The notes: generated by a model not told the origin, from the sequence alone. Shown: positions 49,370-58,935, counted from the first letter of the stretch. The stretch is DNA of 64,000 nt from Pseudomonadota bacterium (GCA_021325135.1 JAJPHT010000046.1:128001-192000); one strand, 5' to 3'. Numbers and translations: made by a program.

Positions 49370-51376
49370 ATGACGGACGCGGGCGCCCGCCTCGACGCGA
49401 TCCTCGCTCGCCACAAGCTCCCGCTGCGCGACGCCGCCGCGCAGGACGCGCTCTGGCGCGAGCTTGCGGAGGGCCCCTTTGCGGAGCCCGGCGCGGTGCC
49501 CTTCGAGCGGCAGTGGGACGCGTGGCGGCGCGTCTTCGCGGAGCGCCCCGCGCACGCGCCGCCGCCCCCCGCGTACCAGCCTGACGCGGCGCGCGTAGAA
49601 CGGGCGAACGTGACCGCCCTCGCGCGCGAGGTGGGCGTCGCCAGCTACGCGGACCTTCAGCGCTGGAGCGCGGCGGACCGCGACGGCTTCTGGGCGCGCG
49701 CGATCCAGGCCCTGGACGTGCCGTTCCGCGACCCGCCCCGCGCCATCCGCGAAGGCGGCGCCGAGGACCCCGCGTGGCTCCCCGGCGCGACGCTCAACGC
49801 GGTGGACCTCTGCTTCCGGGCTCCACCCGAGCGCGTCGCCATCGTGCTGGGCCGCGAGGGCGAGGAGCGCCTCCGCCACGTCACCTACGGCGAGTTGGAG
49901 CGCATGACGAACCGCGTCGCGCACGGCTTCCGCGCGCTGGGCCTCGCGGCAGGCGACGCGGTCGCGCTCTACCTGCCCATGACCGTGGAGTGCGTCGCGG
50001 CGTACCTGGGCGTCATCCGCGCGGGCGGCGTCGTGGTGAGCATCGCGGACAGCTTCGCGCCTCCCGAGGTCGCGACGCGCCTGCGGCTGGCCGACGCCAA
50101 GGCGATCCTCACCACCGCCGCGTTCTCGCGGGGCGGGAAGACCTTCGACCTCTACGCCAAGGCGCGGGAGGCCGCCGCGCCGCGCGCCATCGTCGTGGGC
50201 GGCAAGCCCGAGCGCGAGGGCGACCTCGCGTGGGAGACGTTCCTGGGGCCCGCGCAGCCCTTCGAGAGCCTCGCCCTGGAGCCCACGGCGCCGACCAACG
50301 TCCTCTTCAGCAGCGGCACGACGGGCGACCCCAAGGCGATCCCGTGGACGCACCTGACGCCGCTGAAGGCCGCCATGGACGCGCGATATCACCAGGACGT
50401 CCACGAGGATGATATCATCGCCTGGCCCACCAGCATCGGCTGGATGATGGGCCCGTGGCTCGTGTACGCCTCGCTGGCCAACCGCGCGACCATGGCCCTC
50501 TTCGAGGGCGCGCCGCAGTCGCCCGAGTTCCCGCGCTTCGTGGAGCGCGCGGGCGTCACCGTGCTGGGCGTCGTGCCGGCCCTCGTGCGCGCGTGGCGCG
50601 CCTCCGGCGCGGTGCAGCGCGAGCTCGCGAAGATCCGCGTCTTCAGCAGCACGGGCGAGGCCTCCAACGTCGAGGACTACCTCTGGCTCTCCAGCGCGGC
50701 GGGCCACCGCGCGCCCATCGTGGAGTACTGCGGCGGCACGGAGATCGGCGGCGGCCACCTCACGGGCACCGTCGTCCAGCCGCAGAGCCCCGCCACCTTC
50801 AGCACGCCCGCGCTGGGGCTCGACTTCGTCGTCCTCGACCACGAGGGCAAGCGCGAGGTCGCCGAGAACGAGATGGGCGAGATCTGGCTCATCCCCCCCA
50901 GCATCGGCCTCTCGCAGCGCCTCCTCCACCGCGACCACCACAAGGAATACTACGCGGACGCGCCGCGCGGCCCCCGGGGCGAGCTCCTGCGCCGGCACGG
51001 CGACGAGGTGGAGCGCCTCCCCGGCGGCCACTGGCGCGCCCACGGCCGCGCGGACGACACCATGAACCTGGGCGGCATCAAGGTGAGCAGCCTGGAGCTG
51101 GAGCGCGTCGTGGACCGCCACCCCCAGGTCTACCAGAGCGCGGCCGTCGCGGTGATCCCGCCCGAAGGGGGCGCGGACCAGCTGGTGGTCTTCGTCGTGC
51201 CCCGCGAAGGCGCGCGCCCCGAGCCCAAGGCGCTCCAGAACGAGCTTCAGGACTTGGTGAAGAGGGACCTCAACCCACTCTACCGCATCCACGACGTGGT
51301 GCTGGTGGACGCGCTGCCGCGCACGGCGAGCAACAAGATCGTGCGGCGGGAGCTGAGGAAGCGTTACCGGAAGTAG
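49370..51376 (+). CDS. acyl-CoA synthetase (AMP-binding; AAE17/18-like)
   Basis: LFSSGTTGDPKAIPW, GWMMGPW, SSTGEAS, CGGTEIGG, HGRADDTMNLGGIK, PRTASNK. Confidence 0.92.
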   Translation: MTDAGARLDAILARHKLPLRDAAAQDALWRELAEGPFAEPGAVPFERQWDAWRRVFAERPAHAPPPPAYQPDAARVERANVTALAREVGVASYADLQRWSAADRDGFWARAIQALDVPFRDPPRAIREGGAEDPAWLPGATLNAVDLCFRAPPERVAIVLGREGEERLRHVTYGELERMTNRVAHGFRALGLAAGDAVALYLPMTVECVAAYLGVIRAGGVVVSIADSFAPPEVATRLRLADAKAILTTAAFSRGGKTFDLYAKAREAAAPRAIVVGGKPEREGDLAWETFLGPAQPFESLALEPTAPTNVLFSSGTTGDPKAIPWTHLTPLKAAMDARYHQDVHEDDIIAWPTSIGWMMGPWLVYASLANRATMALFEGAPQSPEFPRFVERAGVTVLGVVPALVRAWRASGAVQRELAKIRVFSSTGEASNVEDYLWLSSAAGHRAPIVEYCGGTEIGGGHLTGTVVQPQSPATFSTPALGLDFVVLDHEGKREVAENEMGEIWLIPPSIGLSQRLLHRDHHKEYYADAPRGPRGELLRRHGDEVERLPGGHWRAHGRADDTMNLGGIKVSSLELERVVDRHPQVYQSAAVAVIPPEGGADQLVVFVVPREGARPEPKALQNELQDLVKRDLNPLYRIHDVVLVDALPRTASNKIVRRELRKRYRK

Positions 51377-51522
51377 ACCCGCCACCCTCCGAACCCGGGC
51401 CATGGCCGTTACATTCTTGCATGGGGAGCGCATCCGTCGGCATCTTGGCCAAGCGGGGAGGGTTAGTCGTGCCGCCGGTCACGTTCGGATCGTAGGATGC
51501 CTTCTCTGCCTGGGGAGCCCGC

Positions 51523-53475
51523 ATGCCCAACCGCCAGGCCACGCACGATCCCGAGATCGCCCTTCGATGGCTTCTGGCCATCCAGCGTGCTCCCGGTTTG
51601 ACCTTCAGCGCGCTGCATCGCAAGGTCGGAGGAAAGGCGCTCCTGGCCCGGGAGCTTCTCGACGACCTGGAAGCCCGTCAGCTTGTCCGCACCGGTGAAG
51701 AGGAGAAGGATCGCCCCGGGCCCAGCGCCGACGGCCACTGGCTCACGTCGGATGGAGCGGTCTTCCTGGAAGACCTGCAGCGCATCCTGCAGGAGTTCCC
51801 CAACCTCATGTTCGCGCACCGGCTCCTCCGGATCATCGGGGAGCAGCCGGACATCGCGTGGGCGCAGCTGCGCGACGAGGCGAGCACGAACAGCCAGAGC
51901 ATGGCCGTCCACCGGGACCACCTGATCCACGAGGGATACGTGGAGCTTTTCGAGCGGGACCGGAAAGGGCACCGCCACCGCCGGACCGCGAAAGGGGACG
52001 AGACCTTCAGGCGCATTGAGCAGGCCATGGGCAAGCTGGTGAAGCTCGACCAGCCCGAGGTGGGAGCCAAGCCTCCGGTGCGCGCCCCTCTCCCCCGGGC
52101 GATGGAGTCGTGGAGCAAGCTCACCTCGGTGCTCAAGCCCGCGCTCCGGATGGGGAAGGACGGCGTCACGGTCCACGACCCGGAGGCCCTCCGGGGAGAG
52201 CCCATCGACGCTCTCGCCCAGACGGCGGTCTTCGCCGTGGGGCCTACGCGCGACAGGGCGCGGGAGATCGTCCGGGCCCTGGCGCATCAGCAAGGCCTCG
52301 TTCCGGCAAGCCTCCAGCGGTTCTATCTGGCCCGCGCGCGAGGGCACATCGGGTCCTCCTTCACGGTCCCGGCATTCAACATCCGCGGCGCCACCTACGA
52401 GGTCGCGCGGGCCGCGTTCCGCGCCGCCAAGCGCCGCCACGTGGGCGCCATGATCTTCGAGATCGCCCGCAGCGAGACCGGCTACACCGAGCAACGCCCC
52501 GCGGAATACGCCGTGGCGATCCTGGCTGCGGGCGTCAAGGAGGGGTTTCGCGGGCCCCTCTTCCTCCAGGGGGACCACTACCAGTTCACCCGACCCATCG
52601 AGTCCGCGCACCTCCAGGCGACTCAGTTCCAGCTGGAGAACCTCGTCCTGGAGAGCCTCGATGCCGGCTTCCGCCAGATCGACGTCGACGCCTCGCCCCT
52701 TGTCAACCCCGCCCTTCCGACCATCCCGGACCAGCAGGCCCTCAACGCGGTCCGCTCCGCCCGCCTGACGTCCTTCGTCCGCGACCAGGAGGACGTTGGC
52801 CCTGGCGTCTGCGTCGGGGCCGAGGTGTCCGAGATCGGGGGGCCTCCGACAAGCCTGGCGGACGTCCACGCCTTCATGGATCGCTACACCCACGAGCTGC
52901 GCCGCCTGGGCCAGGGTCCGGGGCCGGCCAAGCTCAGCGTCAACACGCTCACGGGGACCGGAGGCTCCGGAGGCGCCCAGGTTTCCTTTGATCTTCTCTC
53001 TTCCATCTCGGAGGTCTGCCGCGAGACCTACGGCATGGCAGGAGTCGCGCAGCACGGGACGGCGGAGCTTCCCGACGCCGAGCTTCATCGCTTCGTGAAG
53101 GCGGGCGCTTGCGAGCTCCACGTGGCGACGGGGCTGCAGAACGCGCTCCTCGACCACCCCGAGTTCCCCCACGCGCTGCGCGCGAGGATGGACGCGTGGG
53201 TCAAGGCTCAGCAGGTGGCGAGCCCGGGGCAGACGCTCCAGAAGCTCCGGAAGCGAGCGTTCGGCCCTTTCAAGCGCGACCTGTGGGCCATCGAGCCGCA
53301 CGTCATGGAGGCCATCGGGAAGGACCTGGAGGCCAAGTTCGACGTGATGTTCCAGGAGCTCGGGGTCGTGGACACCATGCCGCTCGTCGATCGCCTTGCG
53401 CGGAAGGATCCGCCCGGGTGGGGCGCAGGGACTTCCGGGTCACGGACGGCGCGTTCGACGACGCCGAGTTCCTGA
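51523..53475 (+). CDS. fusion of two winged-HTH-like domains with a class II fructose-bisphosphate aldolase-like domain
   Basis: Two units ending HWLTSDG and HRRTAKG (wing motif); FTVPAFNIRG, IFEIARSE.GYT.QRP, FLQGDH, IDVDAS, VAQHG, ELHVATG.QN. Confidence 0.82.
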   Translation: MPNRQATHDPEIALRWLLAIQRAPGLTFSALHRKVGGKALLARELLDDLEARQLVRTGEEEKDRPGPSADGHWLTSDGAVFLEDLQRILQEFPNLMFAHRLLRIIGEQPDIAWAQLRDEASTNSQSMAVHRDHLIHEGYVELFERDRKGHRHRRTAKGDETFRRIEQAMGKLVKLDQPEVGAKPPVRAPLPRAMESWSKLTSVLKPALRMGKDGVTVHDPEALRGEPIDALAQTAVFAVGPTRDRAREIVRALAHQQGLVPASLQRFYLARARGHIGSSFTVPAFNIRGATYEVARAAFRAAKRRHVGAMIFEIARSETGYTEQRPAEYAVAILAAGVKEGFRGPLFLQGDHYQFTRPIESAHLQATQFQLENLVLESLDAGFRQIDVDASPLVNPALPTIPDQQALNAVRSARLTSFVRDQEDVGPGVCVGAEVSEIGGPPTSLADVHAFMDRYTHELRRLGQGPGPAKLSVNTLTGTGGSGGAQVSFDLLSSISEVCRETYGMAGVAQHGTAELPDAELHRFVKAGACELHVATGLQNALLDHPEFPHALRARMDAWVKAQQVASPGQTLQKLRKRAFGPFKRDLWAIEPHVMEAIGKDLEAKFDVMFQELGVVDTMPLVDRLARKDPPGWGAGTSGSRTARSTTPSS

Positions 53476-53608
53476 CCGTTCCTCCAGGGACGGCGGCTCC
53501 GCAGCACCGCACGAGACGCGAGGAACCCGCGGCATCTGAAGGATTAACTTGTCCAACGGAACTGCGCGCGCGGCGTCGCCTGGGAGGCGTCGCCTTGGAG
53601 GACCCGTC

Positions 53609-55126
53609 TTGACCACTGCCCCCGCCAGCCCCACCACGCCCCGCCTCGACGAGCTCACGTCGAACCCGCGCCGCCTCGACGCGCAGCGGGTCGACAAGCT
53701 CCGCCGCCTCGACGCGATGGGCTACGCGCCGCCCTACCGCTTCGTCCCGACCCACGACATCGCCCAGTTCCACGCGACGTTCGGACGCCTCGGCGTGGGC
53801 GAGGAGGCCCCCGACGAGGTCGCCGTGCACGGCCGCGTCGACGCGATCCGCCGGATGGCGAAGGCCATCTTCGTCGACCTGCGCGACCCCGAGGGCGCGC
53901 GGCTCCAGATGTGCGTCCAGCGCCCCGCCGCAGGCCCCCTCTTCGACGGAGCGGCGCTCCTCGACACCGGGGACCGGATCGCCGTCCACGGTCGCCCCCT
54001 GCGCACCCAGAAGGGCGAGCTCTCGGTCCGCGCCGAGAAGCTCGTGCTGCTCTCGAAGTGCCTCCAGGCCGCGCCCAACGCCGGCCTCGACGCGGAGAAC
54101 CGCCTGCGCGAGCCGTGGCTGGACCGCCTCTTCGATGACGCCGCCCGCCAGCGCCTCCTCGCGCGCGCCCGCGTCAAGCGCGCGCTCCACGACGTCATGG
54201 CCGTGGAGGGCTACGTCGAGATCGACCCGCCGCTCCTGAGCCGCAGCTACGGCGGCGCGGCCGCGCGCCCCTTCGTGACCGAGAGCAACGGCCTGGGGGG
54301 CGAGCAGCTCTTCCTCCAGATCTCCCCCGAGATCGCGCTCAAGAAGTGCGTCGTCGGGGGCCTCGACGCGGTGTACGCCGTCACGCGAAACTTCCGCAAC
54401 GAGGGCATCGATCCCAGCCACACGCCCGAGTTCGACGCCTTCGAGTGCTACCGCGTGGGCGCCGACTACGTCGACATGATGGACCTGACGGAGCGCATCT
54501 TCCGCGCGTGCGCGCAGGCGGCCAACGGCACGACGCGCGTGACCTGCCGCGGCGCTGAGATCGACTTCGCGGCGCCCTGGCGCCGCGTCCGCATGCGCGA
54601 CGCGGTCTGCGAGGCGCTCAAGCTGGGCGATCCGGACCTCGACGCGCTGCGCGACGCGCTTCAGGAGCACTCGCTCGACGCGAGCCGCGCGTCGAGCGAG
54701 GCCATGGCGATCAACCTCCTCTTCGAAGCGCGCGTGCAGGAGACGCTCGTCCAGCCGACCATCGTCCTCGACTACCCCGAGGAGATCTCGCCCCTCACGC
54801 GCGCCCACCGCGCGGCGCCGGGGCTCGTCGAGCGCTTCGAGGCGTTCATCGGCGGGACCGAGTTCGCCAACGCCTACACCGAGCTCAACGACCCCTTCGA
54901 GCAGGAGCGCCGCCTGCGGCTCCAGGAGGAGGAGCGCCGCCGCGGCAACGACGAGGCCCACCCCCTGGATTGGAGCTTCGTGGACGCGATGCGGTGCGGC
55001 TTCCCGCCCACGGGCGGCCTCGGGATCGGGCTCGACCGCATGGTCATGCTCCTGACGAGCTCGCCCACCATCCGCGCCATCCAGACCGAGCCGCTGGTCC
55101 GCTCCCTGCCCGAGGAGGCCGGGTGA
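53609..55126 (+). CDS. lysS: divergent class II lysyl-tRNA synthetase (OB-fold plus catalytic domain)
   Basis: KGELSV, GGAAARPFVT, motif 2 RNFRNEGID, ERFE, ANAYTELNDP, motif 3 GGLGIGLDR; TTG start with GGAGGA SD. Confidence 0.88.
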   Translation: MTTAPASPTTPRLDELTSNPRRLDAQRVDKLRRLDAMGYAPPYRFVPTHDIAQFHATFGRLGVGEEAPDEVAVHGRVDAIRRMAKAIFVDLRDPEGARLQMCVQRPAAGPLFDGAALLDTGDRIAVHGRPLRTQKGELSVRAEKLVLLSKCLQAAPNAGLDAENRLREPWLDRLFDDAARQRLLARARVKRALHDVMAVEGYVEIDPPLLSRSYGGAAARPFVTESNGLGGEQLFLQISPEIALKKCVVGGLDAVYAVTRNFRNEGIDPSHTPEFDAFECYRVGADYVDMMDLTERIFRACAQAANGTTRVTCRGAEIDFAAPWRRVRMRDAVCEALKLGDPDLDALRDALQEHSLDASRASSEAMAINLLFEARVQETLVQPTIVLDYPEEISPLTRAHRAAPGLVERFEAFIGGTEFANAYTELNDPFEQERRLRLQEEERRRGNDEAHPLDWSFVDAMRCGFPPTGGLGIGLDRMVMLLTSSPTIRAIQTEPLVRSLPEEAG

Positions 55127-55815
55127 TCCCGATGCTTGGCTCGCCCCGCCGCGAGGTCGACAAACGCGCGTTCGACGCGGTCCGCCGCGAGCTGGGGTTC
55201 TCCCTCGTGCGCTGCGCGGGCCACTCGCCGGAGGGCTGGGAGATCGAGTACCAGTCGCCCGAGGGCACGCTCAAGATGGCCACGCTCGCCGGCCGCATCG
55301 AGCTGCGCCAGGGCGCGCTCATCGCCGCCCTCACCCGCCTGGACAACGACGCCCTGGGGCGCGTGCAGGAGCGGTGGGAAGTCCGCGCCGGCGAGGTCGT
55401 GGAGGCCACGGAAGAGCCCGCCACCGACCTTCACCTCCTCAAGGCCGTCGTCCGGACGCACCCGCACGTGCGCCAGCTGCTGGCCACGGGCTTCTGTGGA
55501 CGCCCGGGCTATCCCGAGGAGCCCCAGGATCTCGTGGGCGCGCACTTCGCGATCCTGGCCAACGCGCGCCCCAAGGCCTTCCCCTCTGTCGGCATCCAGA
55601 GCGAAGGCATGTTCCTGGGCTGCGAGAGCGACGACCACGTCGGGCTGCTGCGCTTCCGGCTTCCGCCGGCCGTGCGCCATCTGGAGCGCAACCTCGTGGA
55701 CTGGCGGCTCTCGACCGACGGGCGCATCGCCGTTCCGGGCTGCTGGTTCGTTCGGAGGTTCTTCCCCGCCGAGCTCGCCTTCGGCGATTTCCCCACGGGA
55801 TGGCCGGTCCAGTAG
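55123..55815 (+). CDS. protein containing a Trbp111/CsaA/EMAP II-like tRNA-binding OB domain
   Basis: EVRAGEVVEA...RQLLATG...DLVG...LANARPK...GIQSEGMFL; GTGA overlap with lysS. Confidence 0.72.
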   Translation: MIPMLGSPRREVDKRAFDAVRRELGFSLVRCAGHSPEGWEIEYQSPEGTLKMATLAGRIELRQGALIAALTRLDNDALGRVQERWEVRAGEVVEATEEPATDLHLLKAVVRTHPHVRQLLATGFCGRPGYPEEPQDLVGAHFAILANARPKAFPSVGIQSEGMFLGCESDDHVGLLRFRLPPAVRHLERNLVDWRLSTDGRIAVPGCWFVRRFFPAELAFGDFPTGWPVQ

Positions 55816-55881
55816 CCACACGCCCATGCGACGCCAGGAAGCGTGGTCGGGCCAACCGCAGATGCAGGTGCGGCGAGGCGC

Positions 55882-56154
55882 TCACTCCGTCGGCGGCAGC
55901 GTGCAGTCGAAGACCTCGCGGCCCAGGACGAAGTAGCCGCACTCCTGGTGGCCGGCCGCGCTGCCCTGGTGGGCGTAGACGACCGTCTGGCCGTCCTCGA
56001 CGCAGGTGAGGCGGTACGAGTCGCCCACGTCGTACTGGCTGGTCCACAGGTCGCAGGGGCCGACGCGGTGGTCGCCGAAGGGGTTGGGGACGGGAGTGGC
56101 CAGCGCGAGGGGCGTGGCGGCGAGCAGGATCGTAAGAAGCAGAAGAGTGCGCAT
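55882..56154 (-). CDS. small secreted 4-Cys protein, array member 5
   Basis: Signal peptide; VGPC-x16-C-x20-C-x11-C. Confidence 0.82.
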   Translation of the reverse strand: MRTLLLLTILLAATPLALATPVPNPFGDHRVGPCDLWTSQYDVGDSYRLTCVEDGQTVVYAHQGSAAGHQECGYFVLGREVFDCTLPPTE

Positions 56155-56205
56155 GGTGGTGCCTCCACAGGCGCACCACCAGGCGGGAAGATGACGTTTG
56201 CGGGC

Positions 56206-56499
56206 TCAGTTCACGAGGGGGCCGCAGCTGTAGAGGTCGTGGCCGTCGACCCAGTAGCCGCACTCCCACACGAGGCCGGCCTGGCCCTGGTGGAAGTAGA
56301 TGCTGTGGCCCTCGACGTCGCACGTCAGGCGCGACGAGTCGCCCACGTCGAACTGGTTCGTCCAGTAGTCGCAGGGGCCGACGTAGTGGTCGCCGTAGGG
56401 GCTGGGGTGCGGGATCGCGATGGGGCCGGGGAGCGGGCCTGCAAGCGCGAGGGGGGTCGCCAGGAGCGCGAGCGCAGCAAGGACAAGGGGGGTTCGCAT
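56206..56499 (-). CDS. small secreted 4-Cys protein, array member 4
   Basis: Signal peptide; VGPC-x16-C-x19-C-x11-C. Confidence 0.82.
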   Translation of the reverse strand: MRTPLVLAALALLATPLALAGPLPGPIAIPHPSPYGDHYVGPCDYWTNQFDVGDSSRLTCDVEGHSIYFHQGQAGLVWECGYWVDGHDLYSCGPLVN

Positions 56500-56565
56500 G
56501 GGTGTGCCTCCGCCGCGTGACGGTGGCGGGGAGGCATCACCCTTGCGGCGGAGCAGCGTCGCGGG

Positions 56566-56838
56566 TCAAGCCGGCACGCCGCAGGGGACGAAGACCGTGG
56601 CGCCGTCCACGTTGGCGTACGCGTAGTCGCCCAGCGCGCACGTGCCGTAGCTGGCGCGGGCGGACTGGCCGGCTGCGGCGCAGCCGACGCCCAGCGCCTC
56701 GCCGGGCCAGAGGAGCGACCACGAGACGACGCAGGGGCCCACCGTGACGGGGGGCTGCGGGAGCGAGGGGCGCGCGGCGGCGAGGGGCGCCAGCAAGGCG
56801 AGCGCCACGAGAAGAAGGGCGACACGCACGGCGCTCAC
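56566..56838 (-). CDS. small secreted 4-Cys protein, array member 3
   Basis: GTGA overlap; signal peptide; VGPC-x16-C-x13-C-x18-C. Confidence 0.75.
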   Translation of the reverse strand: MSAVRVALLLVALALLAPLAAARPSLPQPPVTVGPCVVSWSLLWPGEALGVGCAAAGQSARASYGTCALGDYAYANVDGATVFVPCGVPA

Positions 56839-57116
56839 TCCGTCCCGGGGGAGCACTGCTCCAGGGTCTGGCCGAGGACGCGCAGGTGGCACGAGTGGCC
56901 CAGGAGCGTCATGCTGTCGGCGTAGTCGAAGACCTCGATGCCTTCGGCGGAGCACCCGGCGGCGCGCGACTCGGCGTCCACATTGAAGCCCCACGACGCG
57001 TGGCACGGGCCCACGACGTAGCTGCCGTGGTCGAGGGGGGGCAGGGGCGAGGCCTGCGCGAGGGGCGCCAGCGCAAGGAGGGCCAGGAGGCCGGCCAGGA
57101 CGGGGGCGCGCATCAT
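56835..57116 (-). CDS. small secreted 4-Cys protein, array member 2
   Basis: ATGA overlap; signal peptide; VGPC-x16-C-x20-C-x11-C. Confidence 0.8.
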   Translation of the reverse strand: MMRAPVLAGLLALLALAPLAQASPLPPLDHGSYVVGPCHASWGFNVDAESRAAGCSAEGIEVFDYADSMTLLGHSCHLRVLGQTLEQCSPGTE

Positions 57117-57397
57117 TCCCCCTCCGGGGGCGGGCACTGCTCGAGGGTCTGGCCCGCGACGCGCAGGCCGCAGGAGTGGCCCCCGATGGTGGTGCCGTCC
57201 CAGTACGAGAGGACCTCCTGGCCCGCGACCCCGCACGAGACGGAGGTGACGCTGCCTTCGAACCACGTGACCTTCTCCACGTGGCAGGGGCCGACGGTCT
57301 CGTCGACGTTGCCGTTGGGCAGCGGGGGCGCGGCGGACGCGGCCGGGAGCAGGAGAAGCAGGATGAGCAGCGCGGGGAGCGCAAGCAGGGTTCGCAT
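57113..57397 (-). CDS. small secreted 4-Cys protein, array member 1
   Basis: SD GGAGG; signal peptide; VGPC-x16-C-x20-C-x11-C. Confidence 0.82.
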   Translation of the reverse strand: MRTLLALPALLILLLLLPAASAAPPLPNGNVDETVGPCHVEKVTWFEGSVTSVSCGVAGQEVLSYWDGTTIGGHSCGLRVAGQTLEQCPPPEGE

Positions 57398-57492
57398 GGG
57401 GGTTTGTGCCTCCGGAAGCGGAGAGCGCCGCTGCACGTTTGGGGATTGCGGGCCCGCAGACCCTTAAATGCCAGGCGTTCCCTGCGGAGGCC

Positions 57493-58880: not shown

Positions 58881-58935
58881 GTCACGTGACCGGTCACGTG
58901 ACGCGGTCGGCTGCATCACGTGACCGGTCACGTGA
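58881..58935. repeat. two perfect palindromes built from four TCACGTGA units
   Basis: GTCACGTGACCGGTCACGTGAC 58881-58902 and TCACGTGACCGGTCACGTGA 58916-58935. Confidence 0.95.

Follow-up and report, generated by a model that had tools for sequence, protein, structure and literature searches.

A second, class II lysyl-tRNA synthetase with a putative tRNA-binding partner and an aldolase-derived gene in an uncultured soil archaeon

Organization of the locus and the resident lysyl-tRNA synthetase

Through analysis of a 64,000-nucleotide stretch of DNA (the window, G000:C40:128001-192000, within a 228-kb contig of the metagenome-assembled genome (MAG) G000), a module of three consecutive genes on the plus strand has been delineated: (i) gene 1 (51523-53475), encoding a 650-residue protein with two MarR-like winged helices and a degenerate class II aldolase; (ii) the gene of a class II lysyl-tRNA synthetase (LysRS2; 53609-55126), encoding 505 residues; and (iii) the gene of a 230-residue protein with a tRNA-binding domain, here called the partner (55123-55815). 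The host is an uncultured soil archaeon carrying the usual archaeal class I LysRS; the class I enzyme is the LysRS of the host lineage, and the class II enzyme of the module is a second one.

The initial annotation had described three co-oriented open reading frames (ORFs) at these positions, and they are indeed present. They are taken as coding because their third-position GC reaches 0.88-0.96 in the respective frames, in a genome of 72% GC. The LysRS2 frame is open from 53549, and its more likely start is the TTG at 53609, with a GGAGG sequence 8 nt upstream, which corrects an earlier start. The described GTGA overlap of the last two genes has been located as well, the LysRS stop codon TGA occupying 55124-55126 and the partner start codon GTG 55123-55125, with an ATG 9 nt further on.

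The MAG has a size of 3.77 Mb, 72% GC on each contig, an estimated completeness of 94% and an estimated contamination of 5.6%. The assembly contains no 16S rRNA gene, and the phylum label Thermoplasmatota is provisional for the host. The separate housekeeping LysRS, for which the initial annotation proposed to search, is encoded on contig C6 (class I, 500.8 bits), and class I LysRS is present in 20 of the 21 searched genomes, namely G000 itself plus 20 relatives. The class II enzyme has no orthologue in any of 40 relatives (four of them congeners), where the best matches to it are AspRS or AsnRS at about 25% identity. Across the phylum, class II LysRS occurs in 30 of 401 sampled genomes, at 34-37% identity to the window enzyme. 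The window LysRS2 is not vertically inherited and was acquired laterally; the view of the module as accessory rather than housekeeping thus stands. The tRNA-Lys genes of G000 are the usual CUU and UUU ones only, with no odd tRNA.

The module lies in the interval between acs and asnS (51377-57405, taken irrespective of strand), the native acs ending at 51376 and the native asnS starting at about 57406. In the congener G001 the same two genes are separated by about 750 bp with a single lipoprotein-like ORF, compared with about 6 kb in the window, where the interval holds the three module genes and five small secreted-protein genes on the minus strand. The flanks (acs, asnS) are 74-90% identical to those of congeners. 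Given the difference in spacing and the native flanks, the module is an insertion into native DNA. Contamination as its origin is ruled out by these flanks, by the length of the contig and by the uniform GC content. A check for mobile-element borders found no direct repeats bordering the insertion and no adjoining tRNA gene.

The LysRS2-partner pair and its distribution

In LysRS2, an anticodon-binding OB domain (53819-54052; PF01336, 41.5 bits) is followed by the catalytic domain (54092-55084; Pfam tRNA-synt_2, 232.9 bits). The NCBIfam lysS models TIGR00499 and NF001756 are exceeded narrowly (475 against a cut-off of 468 bits, and 429 against 427.6 bits). The motifs FRNE, H-x-PEF, E-x-Y, ERFE, NAYTE and GLDR align with those of the solved LysRS structures 9JKL and 3A74. 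The arginines of motifs 2 and 3, the Mg/ATP glutamates and the residues of the lysine pocket are kept, and are invariant in an alignment with 48 other LysRS2 sequences; the roles of these catalytic and pocket residues are assigned after the LysU structures. The same alignment indicates that the anticodon-domain invariants R81, F88, Q100, T133 and E137 (alignment numbering) are retained, while one universal glycine of this domain, G104, is changed throughout the clade to which the enzyme belongs. The claim that the anticodon OB-fold and the Lys/ATP motifs are preserved is thereby borne out, and LysRS2 looks competent; judged by its residues, it would charge tRNA-Lys with lysine. The further suggestion that a lysine analogue is charged is disfavoured, because every lysine-pocket residue that could be mapped is retained. 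Two known types of LysRS paralogue have been considered and rejected: EpmA/PoxA, as the anticodon domain is present and the genX score of 195 bits falls short of its cut-off (286.9), and LysX (the MprF-LysRS fusion), with 387.9 against 742 bits and a match spanning the LysRS part only.

The closest relatives of the window enzyme among 5.8 billion protein clusters come from two other lineages, L019 (64% identity) and L020/L021 (50%), after which follow ordinary LysRS2 enzymes at no more than 45%; identity to bacterial LysRS2 is about 40-45%. The three sequences form a monophyletic clade, distinct and outside vertical inheritance (100 in the Shimodaira-Hasegawa-like approximate likelihood ratio test, SH-aLRT; stem 0.58), placed loosely among archaeal LysRS2 and outside any Thermoplasmatota group. 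Over 154 conserved columns the clade departs at 35-43; the top matches, which are mostly bacterial, have a median of 4 such departures, and housekeeping archaeal LysRS2 have 17-28. About 11 of the changes are clade-wide and fall where bacterial and archaeal LysRS2 are both fixed: G104, R189P, Y190W, L193, E226D, L262I, R266K, T296D, Y304G, D476S and F514E. The three motif departures pointed out in the initial annotation are real, and several are clade-specific with respect to both groups: HNPEFT carries T296D, the ELYLKR stretch both L262I and R266K, and the C-terminal FP motif F514E.

Three further LysRS sequences were noted in the course of these searches. A same-family genome carries a class II LysRS fragment, 31% identical to the window enzyme, on a 1-kb contig (L009, G006:C789:4-606), which may be a real second LysRS or contamination. 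More divergent LysRS-like genes, both at contig ends and both from other Thermoplasmatota genomes, are located at L032:6181-7650 (G097; 375.6 bits, below the cut-off; 52 departures at conserved columns) and L033:67-1416 (G161; 277.8 bits, below the cut-off; 80 departures).

The partner scores 31.7 bits with Pfam tRNA_bind (PF01588, cut-off 27). Residues 1-82 (55123-55368) form an N-terminal domain that matches no family, and residues 83-230 (55369-55812) an OB domain of the Trbp111/MetRS-C type with an insertion of about 40 residues at 179-218. Of the extra segments ascribed to this protein, the N-terminal one is confirmed, whereas the supposed C-terminal extension is mostly the ~40-residue insertion before the last OB strand. 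In the joint alignment with MetRS C-terminal domains, the OB domain is complete, beginning at residue 83 and running to the C-terminus, with a 4-residue and the ~40-residue insertion, and hhalign relates the partner to 23 MetRS C-terminal domains with a probability of 97.6% (E 3e-12); the L019 and L020 partners taken alone stay below the Pfam tRNA_bind cut-off (19.9 and 23.9 bits). Residues R117, N147, S160, G162, M163, L165 and G226 are invariant in all 26 aligned sequences. The DHPxAD and LRG motifs are altered in the partner and lost in two of the three copies.

An AlphaFold2 model of the partner built from the enlarged alignment reached a mean predicted local distance difference test (pLDDT) value of 79; a model from the three family sequences (pLDDT 39) was discarded. 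The fold matches are MetRS-C, CsaA and Trbp111 at Z 12.5-11.7, the best being 5H34 (Z 12.5, root-mean-square deviation 3.5, 110 residues), with 1MKH at Z 12.1. Over residues 74-224, Z values of 9.1-9.3 are reached with the EMAPII-type domains of Arc1p, p43 and TyrRS, and the ~40-residue insertion aligns with an additional subdomain that monomeric EMAPII-like proteins possess. In the model, this resemblance would argue against a dimer of the Trbp111 type.

The partner family comprises three distinct members in 1.84 billion representatives and 5.8 billion clusters, namely those of the window, L019 and L020/L021; in the search of the representatives, which covered all lengths, the window protein appears under two records, and two weak repeat-type matches were also returned. 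No further member was found by a profile search or when GTDB species genomes and JGI metagenomes were scanned with patterns, and in 401 genomes of the phylum a profile search gave ordinary tRNA_bind domains only, with no full-length partner. The L019 and L020/L021 members are 60% and 30% identical to the window protein. In all three cases the partner gene stands directly downstream of a LysRS2 of the clade, with a 4-nt overlap or a 4-nt gap. The LysRS-partner set is very rare, with three lineages known, and the partner occurs solely with the three-member LysRS2 clade.

As to the recurrence of the module, the whole trio is present in L019 and the LysRS-partner pair in L020/L021, so that the three genes do co-occur elsewhere and the class II enzyme is not the sole LysRS of its genome, the two points on which the initial annotation had staked its proposal. 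Comparison of window and L019 gives, for each of the three genes, a ratio of nonsynonymous to synonymous substitution rates (dN/dS) within 0.35-0.47, which indicates purifying, fairly relaxed selection, with the reservation that the synonymous term is probably saturated or biased at 93% GC in third positions.

The third lineage has a setting of its own. The L020 copy is on a metagenome contig of 65% GC (L020:1154-15095), which carries a LanM lanthipeptide synthetase, the pair, an MSMEG_0568-like radical SAM enzyme and tailoring genes. The pair of L020/L021 is located two genes from the true LanM (641.5 bits), and downstream of it in L020 follow a methyltransferase, the radical SAM enzyme, an ATP-grasp enzyme and a CN-hydrolase. 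Of the three contexts, this is the only one with LanM and tailoring genes around the pair; the window and L019 have no such flanking genes. A pyrrolysine-like pathway in L020 was considered and rejected, since its radical SAM and ATP-grasp proteins match neither the PylB nor the PylC model. The 231-residue upstream protein of L020 was likewise rejected as a stand-in for gene 1, no similarity being found.

Gene 1 and other features of the insertion

The two winged helices of gene 1 span residues 14-64 and 99-141 (51562-51714 and 51817-51945), and the aldolase domain residues ~190-640 (52090-53442; F_bP_aldolase, PF01116, 32.2 bits, cut-off 25.5). The Pfam/NCBIfam annotation is class II aldolase/GatZ-like. 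The protein is 52% identical to its L019 copy. Its aldolase domain is of a widely distributed family, ~470 residues long and labelled class II FBP aldolase by the sources, of which 6 of 20 class relatives hold a copy at 40-50% identity. At all four loci examined in class relatives, the family member directly follows a phosphofructokinase gene. These two genes are probably the glycolytic pair of the class relatives and the source of the sensor domain of gene 1. Such a divergent class II aldolase, of about 490 residues, is seen directly after the phosphofructokinase gene at L040:1465-4379, L041:2-2916 and L043:1439-4202. The phosphofructokinase gene of G000 itself has no adjoining aldolase; 3' of it (G000:C39:89242-90382) lie two small ORFs that by eye resemble a nucleotidyltransferase/HEPN pair.

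The winged-helix extension of about 190 residues is confined to the window and L019 copies, and in both cases the fusion stands beside the LysRS-partner pair, the only place where it is found. The histidine of the GTxHG motif, which aligns with the zinc ligand His180 of AgaY, is replaced by Thr479 in the window (codon 52957-52959, plus strand) and by serine in L019, and is histidine in 100% of 116 unfused relatives. The positions of His83 (D351-H352) and His208 (H511) in AgaY numbering are kept, hence one of the three metal-binding histidines is lost. Both copies also lack the DG loop after GTxHG and depart from the invariant AST that follows the HG motif; altogether, of 138 columns with a conservation of at least 90%, 48 are altered. 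The label pseudoaldolase given to this domain is supported. From these features we infer that gene 1 encodes a DNA-binding regulator with a dead-enzyme ligand sensor.

Upstream of gene 1, on the plus strand, the window and L019 have in common the element ACATT(T)CTTGCATG followed by GAGCGC (51411-51436 in the window, 1768-1795 in L019), about 75-100 nt before the aligned start of the gene. The DNA around it differs between the two, and the element is a candidate promoter or operator of gene 1.

The genes surrounding the insertion are ordinary chromosomal ones (DNA ligase, beta-oxidation genes, an acetyl-CoA-synthetase-like gene and AsnRS). None of the three module proteins matches a PADLOC defence-system model (E 0.01). 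The remainder of the acs-asnS insertion is filled by the small secreted-protein genes (55882-57436, minus strand), convergent with the partner gene, whose Cys-containing products have signal peptides and a common VGPC motif; tblastn with three of these proteins gave no match at the corresponding loci of three congeners or L019. Directly 3' of asnS there is a strong palindrome (58887-58930), described as duplicated TCACGTGA boxes. An Rfam microRNA-family match there, on both strands, was rejected as a chance match to the palindrome; apart from it, no tRNA gene or Rfam family was found in the window region, L019 or L020.

Proposed function, alternatives and comparison with known systems

We tentatively read the module as an accessory two-subunit LysRS that would charge tRNA-Lys with the aid of an Arc1p-like cofactor and under the switch of a sugar-phosphate-sensing regulator. 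LysRS2 would be the catalytic subunit, activating lysine and reading the anticodon of tRNA-Lys. The translationally coupled partner would serve as its private Arc1p-like cofactor, in which the N-terminal domain docks on LysRS2 and the Trbp111/EMAPII-type OB domain holds the tRNA; it could in this way offset the clade changes in the inter-domain linker, after motif 2 and in the C-terminal FP motif of LysRS2. Arc1p provides the established model for this arrangement, an N-terminal docking domain joined to a C-terminal tRNA-binding domain that stimulates aminoacylation (PMC4394549). Gene 1, present in two of the three lineages, would be the probable switch, a regulator with winged helices that senses its ligand through an inactivated form of the phosphofructokinase-linked aldolase of the lineage, so that expression of the second synthetase would follow a sugar-bisphosphate or triose-phosphate signal. 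Binding of the partner to LysRS2, tRNA stimulation, ligand sensing, regulation and a physiological benefit are all what we infer.

Several points weigh against this proposal. The alignment behind the OB fold model was seeded with MetRS-C domains, and for that reason the model leans to MetRS-C. Residues 1-82 of the partner have no Pfam match even at E 10, and fold searches barely covered this segment; since the domain matches nothing, its docking role is a guess. A complex prediction of LysRS2 (49-row alignment) with the partner (3 rows) gave a score of 0.00, in a run in which the fold of the partner itself was uncertain, and counts neither for nor against the proposal. The winged helices of gene 1 score below the Pfam cut-offs (MarR_2 23.6 against 27, MarR 19.7 against 24.6), and gene 1 is absent from the third lineage (L020), hence not essential to the pair; on this account the LysRS-partner pair is regarded as the core unit. 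A translation enzyme would be expected to have a dN/dS below the value of about 0.4 seen here. The placement of the LysRS2 clade among archaeal LysRS2 comes from a quick tree search with long branches, and its position is uncertain. Finally, with only three lineages known, the co-occurrence statistics are weak.

Among the alternatives, bypass of an inhibitor survives best, although we consider it unlikely. According to this explanation, the class II enzyme, with its cofactor, is insensitive to a natural compound or lysine analogue that blocks class I LysRS, or protects a producer of such a compound; this is a physiological role, compatible with the two-subunit mechanism. The mobile and patchy occurrence of the module fits it, as does the vicinity of LanM, the radical SAM and ATP-grasp enzymes, the methyltransferase and the CN-hydrolase in L020/L021. 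The window and L019 have no biosynthetic genes beside the module, and lanthipeptides are not known to inhibit LysRS. A duplicate synthetase is a frequent source of resistance, and sensitivity to analogues is not the same in the two LysRS classes (PMC1475646; PMC9437257). In the published data, however, class I is the less analogue-sensitive enzyme (PMC1475646), which makes a class II back-up the less obvious direction. In the limited literature searched, no paper tying LysRS to gene-cluster self-resistance was found.

A non-translational use of activated lysine, in which Lys-tRNA or lysyl-adenylate is made for non-ribosomal purposes, appears somewhat less likely again. The candidates are synthesis of an alarmone of the Ap4A (diadenosine tetraphosphate) type, as by LysU, lysine transfer to a peptide or small molecule, and lysylation of a protein (the OB partner, for instance) in the manner of EpmA and EF-P. 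LysRS paralogues employed in such ways are known (LysU, PoxA/EpmA, LysX; PMC9437257). The clade changes T296D, D476S and F514E concern universal positions near the acceptor-end side, the tailoring-enzyme context of L020 would suit a transfer reaction, and K151 of the partner is invariant. This lysine is, however, typical of ordinary tRNA_bind domains as well; unlike EpmA, LysRS2 keeps a full anticodon-binding domain with its invariants; and no MprF, Fem, cyclodipeptide synthase or LanB-type transferase is encoded beside the pair in the three contexts. A bolder version, for which we see little likelihood, would place LysRS2 and the OB partner outside translation as a mobile device that transfers lysine to a non-ribosomal acceptor (the partner itself, or else a peptide or small natural product, at which the LanM, ATP-grasp and radical SAM genes near the L020 pair hint), gated in the window lineage by a glycolytic-intermediate sensor with a dead aldolase.

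It is also improbable that the partner is a trans-acting deacylase, its OB fold hydrolysing tRNA mischarged by a sloppy LysRS2 instead of delivering tRNA. In T. brucei MCP1 and yeast Arc1p, OB folds resembling Trbp111 do deacylate Ala-tRNA by means of conserved K/R/S residues (PMC12021450), and the partner keeps S160 and a basic residue before proline. The arginine of LRG, however, is replaced (FPSVG) in the window and L019 and kept in L020 only, and the correspondence to the published sites is an alignment by eye. In addition, LysRS2 enzymes are not known to need editing.

The remaining explanation sees in the module a recent horizontal acquisition without a particular function (a transitional step in the exchange of one LysRS class for the other, or a near-neutral passenger, heading to loss or to replacement of the class I enzyme) or else an assembly or binning artefact; it can draw on organisms with both classes having been read as transition stages (PMC1475646), on the absence of the class II gene from all 40 relatives, on the rather high dN/dS and on the contamination estimate of the MAG, but is doubtful, as three lineages with 50-64% identity in LysRS and 30-60% in the partner keep the ORFs intact and adjacent, the clade has its own fixed substitutions, and the native flanks on a 228-kb contig at genome GC rule out contamination.

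Should the two-subunit reading be true, the module would provide a simple system for studying how a tRNA-binding domain acting in trans aids a synthetase, and a new case for the old question of why some organisms retain both LysRS classes. Gene 1 would be a clear example of an enzyme turned ligand sensor and would connect central carbon metabolism with the expression of a translation enzyme. In practical terms the module is of modest value pending a measurement of activity.

Each part of the module can be set beside a known system. In the limited literature searched, no description was found of a LysRS with a Trbp111-type partner or of an aldolase-derived regulator beside a LysRS. Both LysRS classes in one genome, one of them laterally acquired, have been described in Methanosarcina and the Bacillus cereus group (PMC1475646, PMC2916919). 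Neither a dedicated tRNA-binding partner nor a sensor-regulator is described there, and the LysRS pair of B. cereus acts on an extra tRNA-like RNA, none of which was found in the window case, where the acquired enzyme is of class II in a lineage using class I. Stress-specific or repurposed LysRS copies are known; LysU of E. coli is a second, conditionally expressed and stress-inducible class II LysRS with an intact active site (PMC9437257). In contrast to the window enzyme, which belongs to a divergent clade, LysU closely duplicates LysS and lacks a partner. Gene 1 resembles the non-catalytic class II aldolases GatZ and KbaZ in having the aldolase fold with part of the catalytic metal site lost. 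It derives, however, from a different family, that of ~470 residues linked to phosphofructokinase, and its fusion to two winged helices points to a DNA-binding sensor rather than to an aldolase chaperone subunit.

The partner has the same OB fold and signature residues as Aquifex aeolicus Trbp111, MetRS beta and the archaeal MetRS C-domain (8VTZ, 1PYB, 1MKH, 2CWP, 5H34), systems in which the OB domain is a free protein or an appendix of the synthetase. It differs from them in the 82-residue N-terminal domain, in the 4- and ~40-residue insertions and in being tied to LysRS, not MetRS. The nearest parallel is yeast Arc1p with MetRS and GluRS (and likewise p43/AIMP1 and T. brucei MCP1/MCP2), a non-catalytic tRNA-binding cofactor acting in trans with an N-terminal domain and a C-terminal Trbp111/EMAPII OB domain (PMC4394549); the model of the partner aligns to the C-terminal domains of Arc1p and p43 and to an EMAPII-like domain at the Z scores given above. 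Compared to Arc1p, the partner has no GST-like N-terminal domain detected by Pfam, its setting is archaeal, its gene is translationally coupled to that of a single LysRS in a family of three known members, and it is a predicted cofactor. In the archaeal synthetase complexes described so far, a synthetase acts as the scaffold (PMC4394549). Cofactors of the Arc1p/p43 type are usually viewed as a eukaryotic elaboration, and a prokaryotic LysRS with a co-evolving Trbp111-type subunit would, if confirmed, represent a minimal and movable Arc1p-like arrangement.

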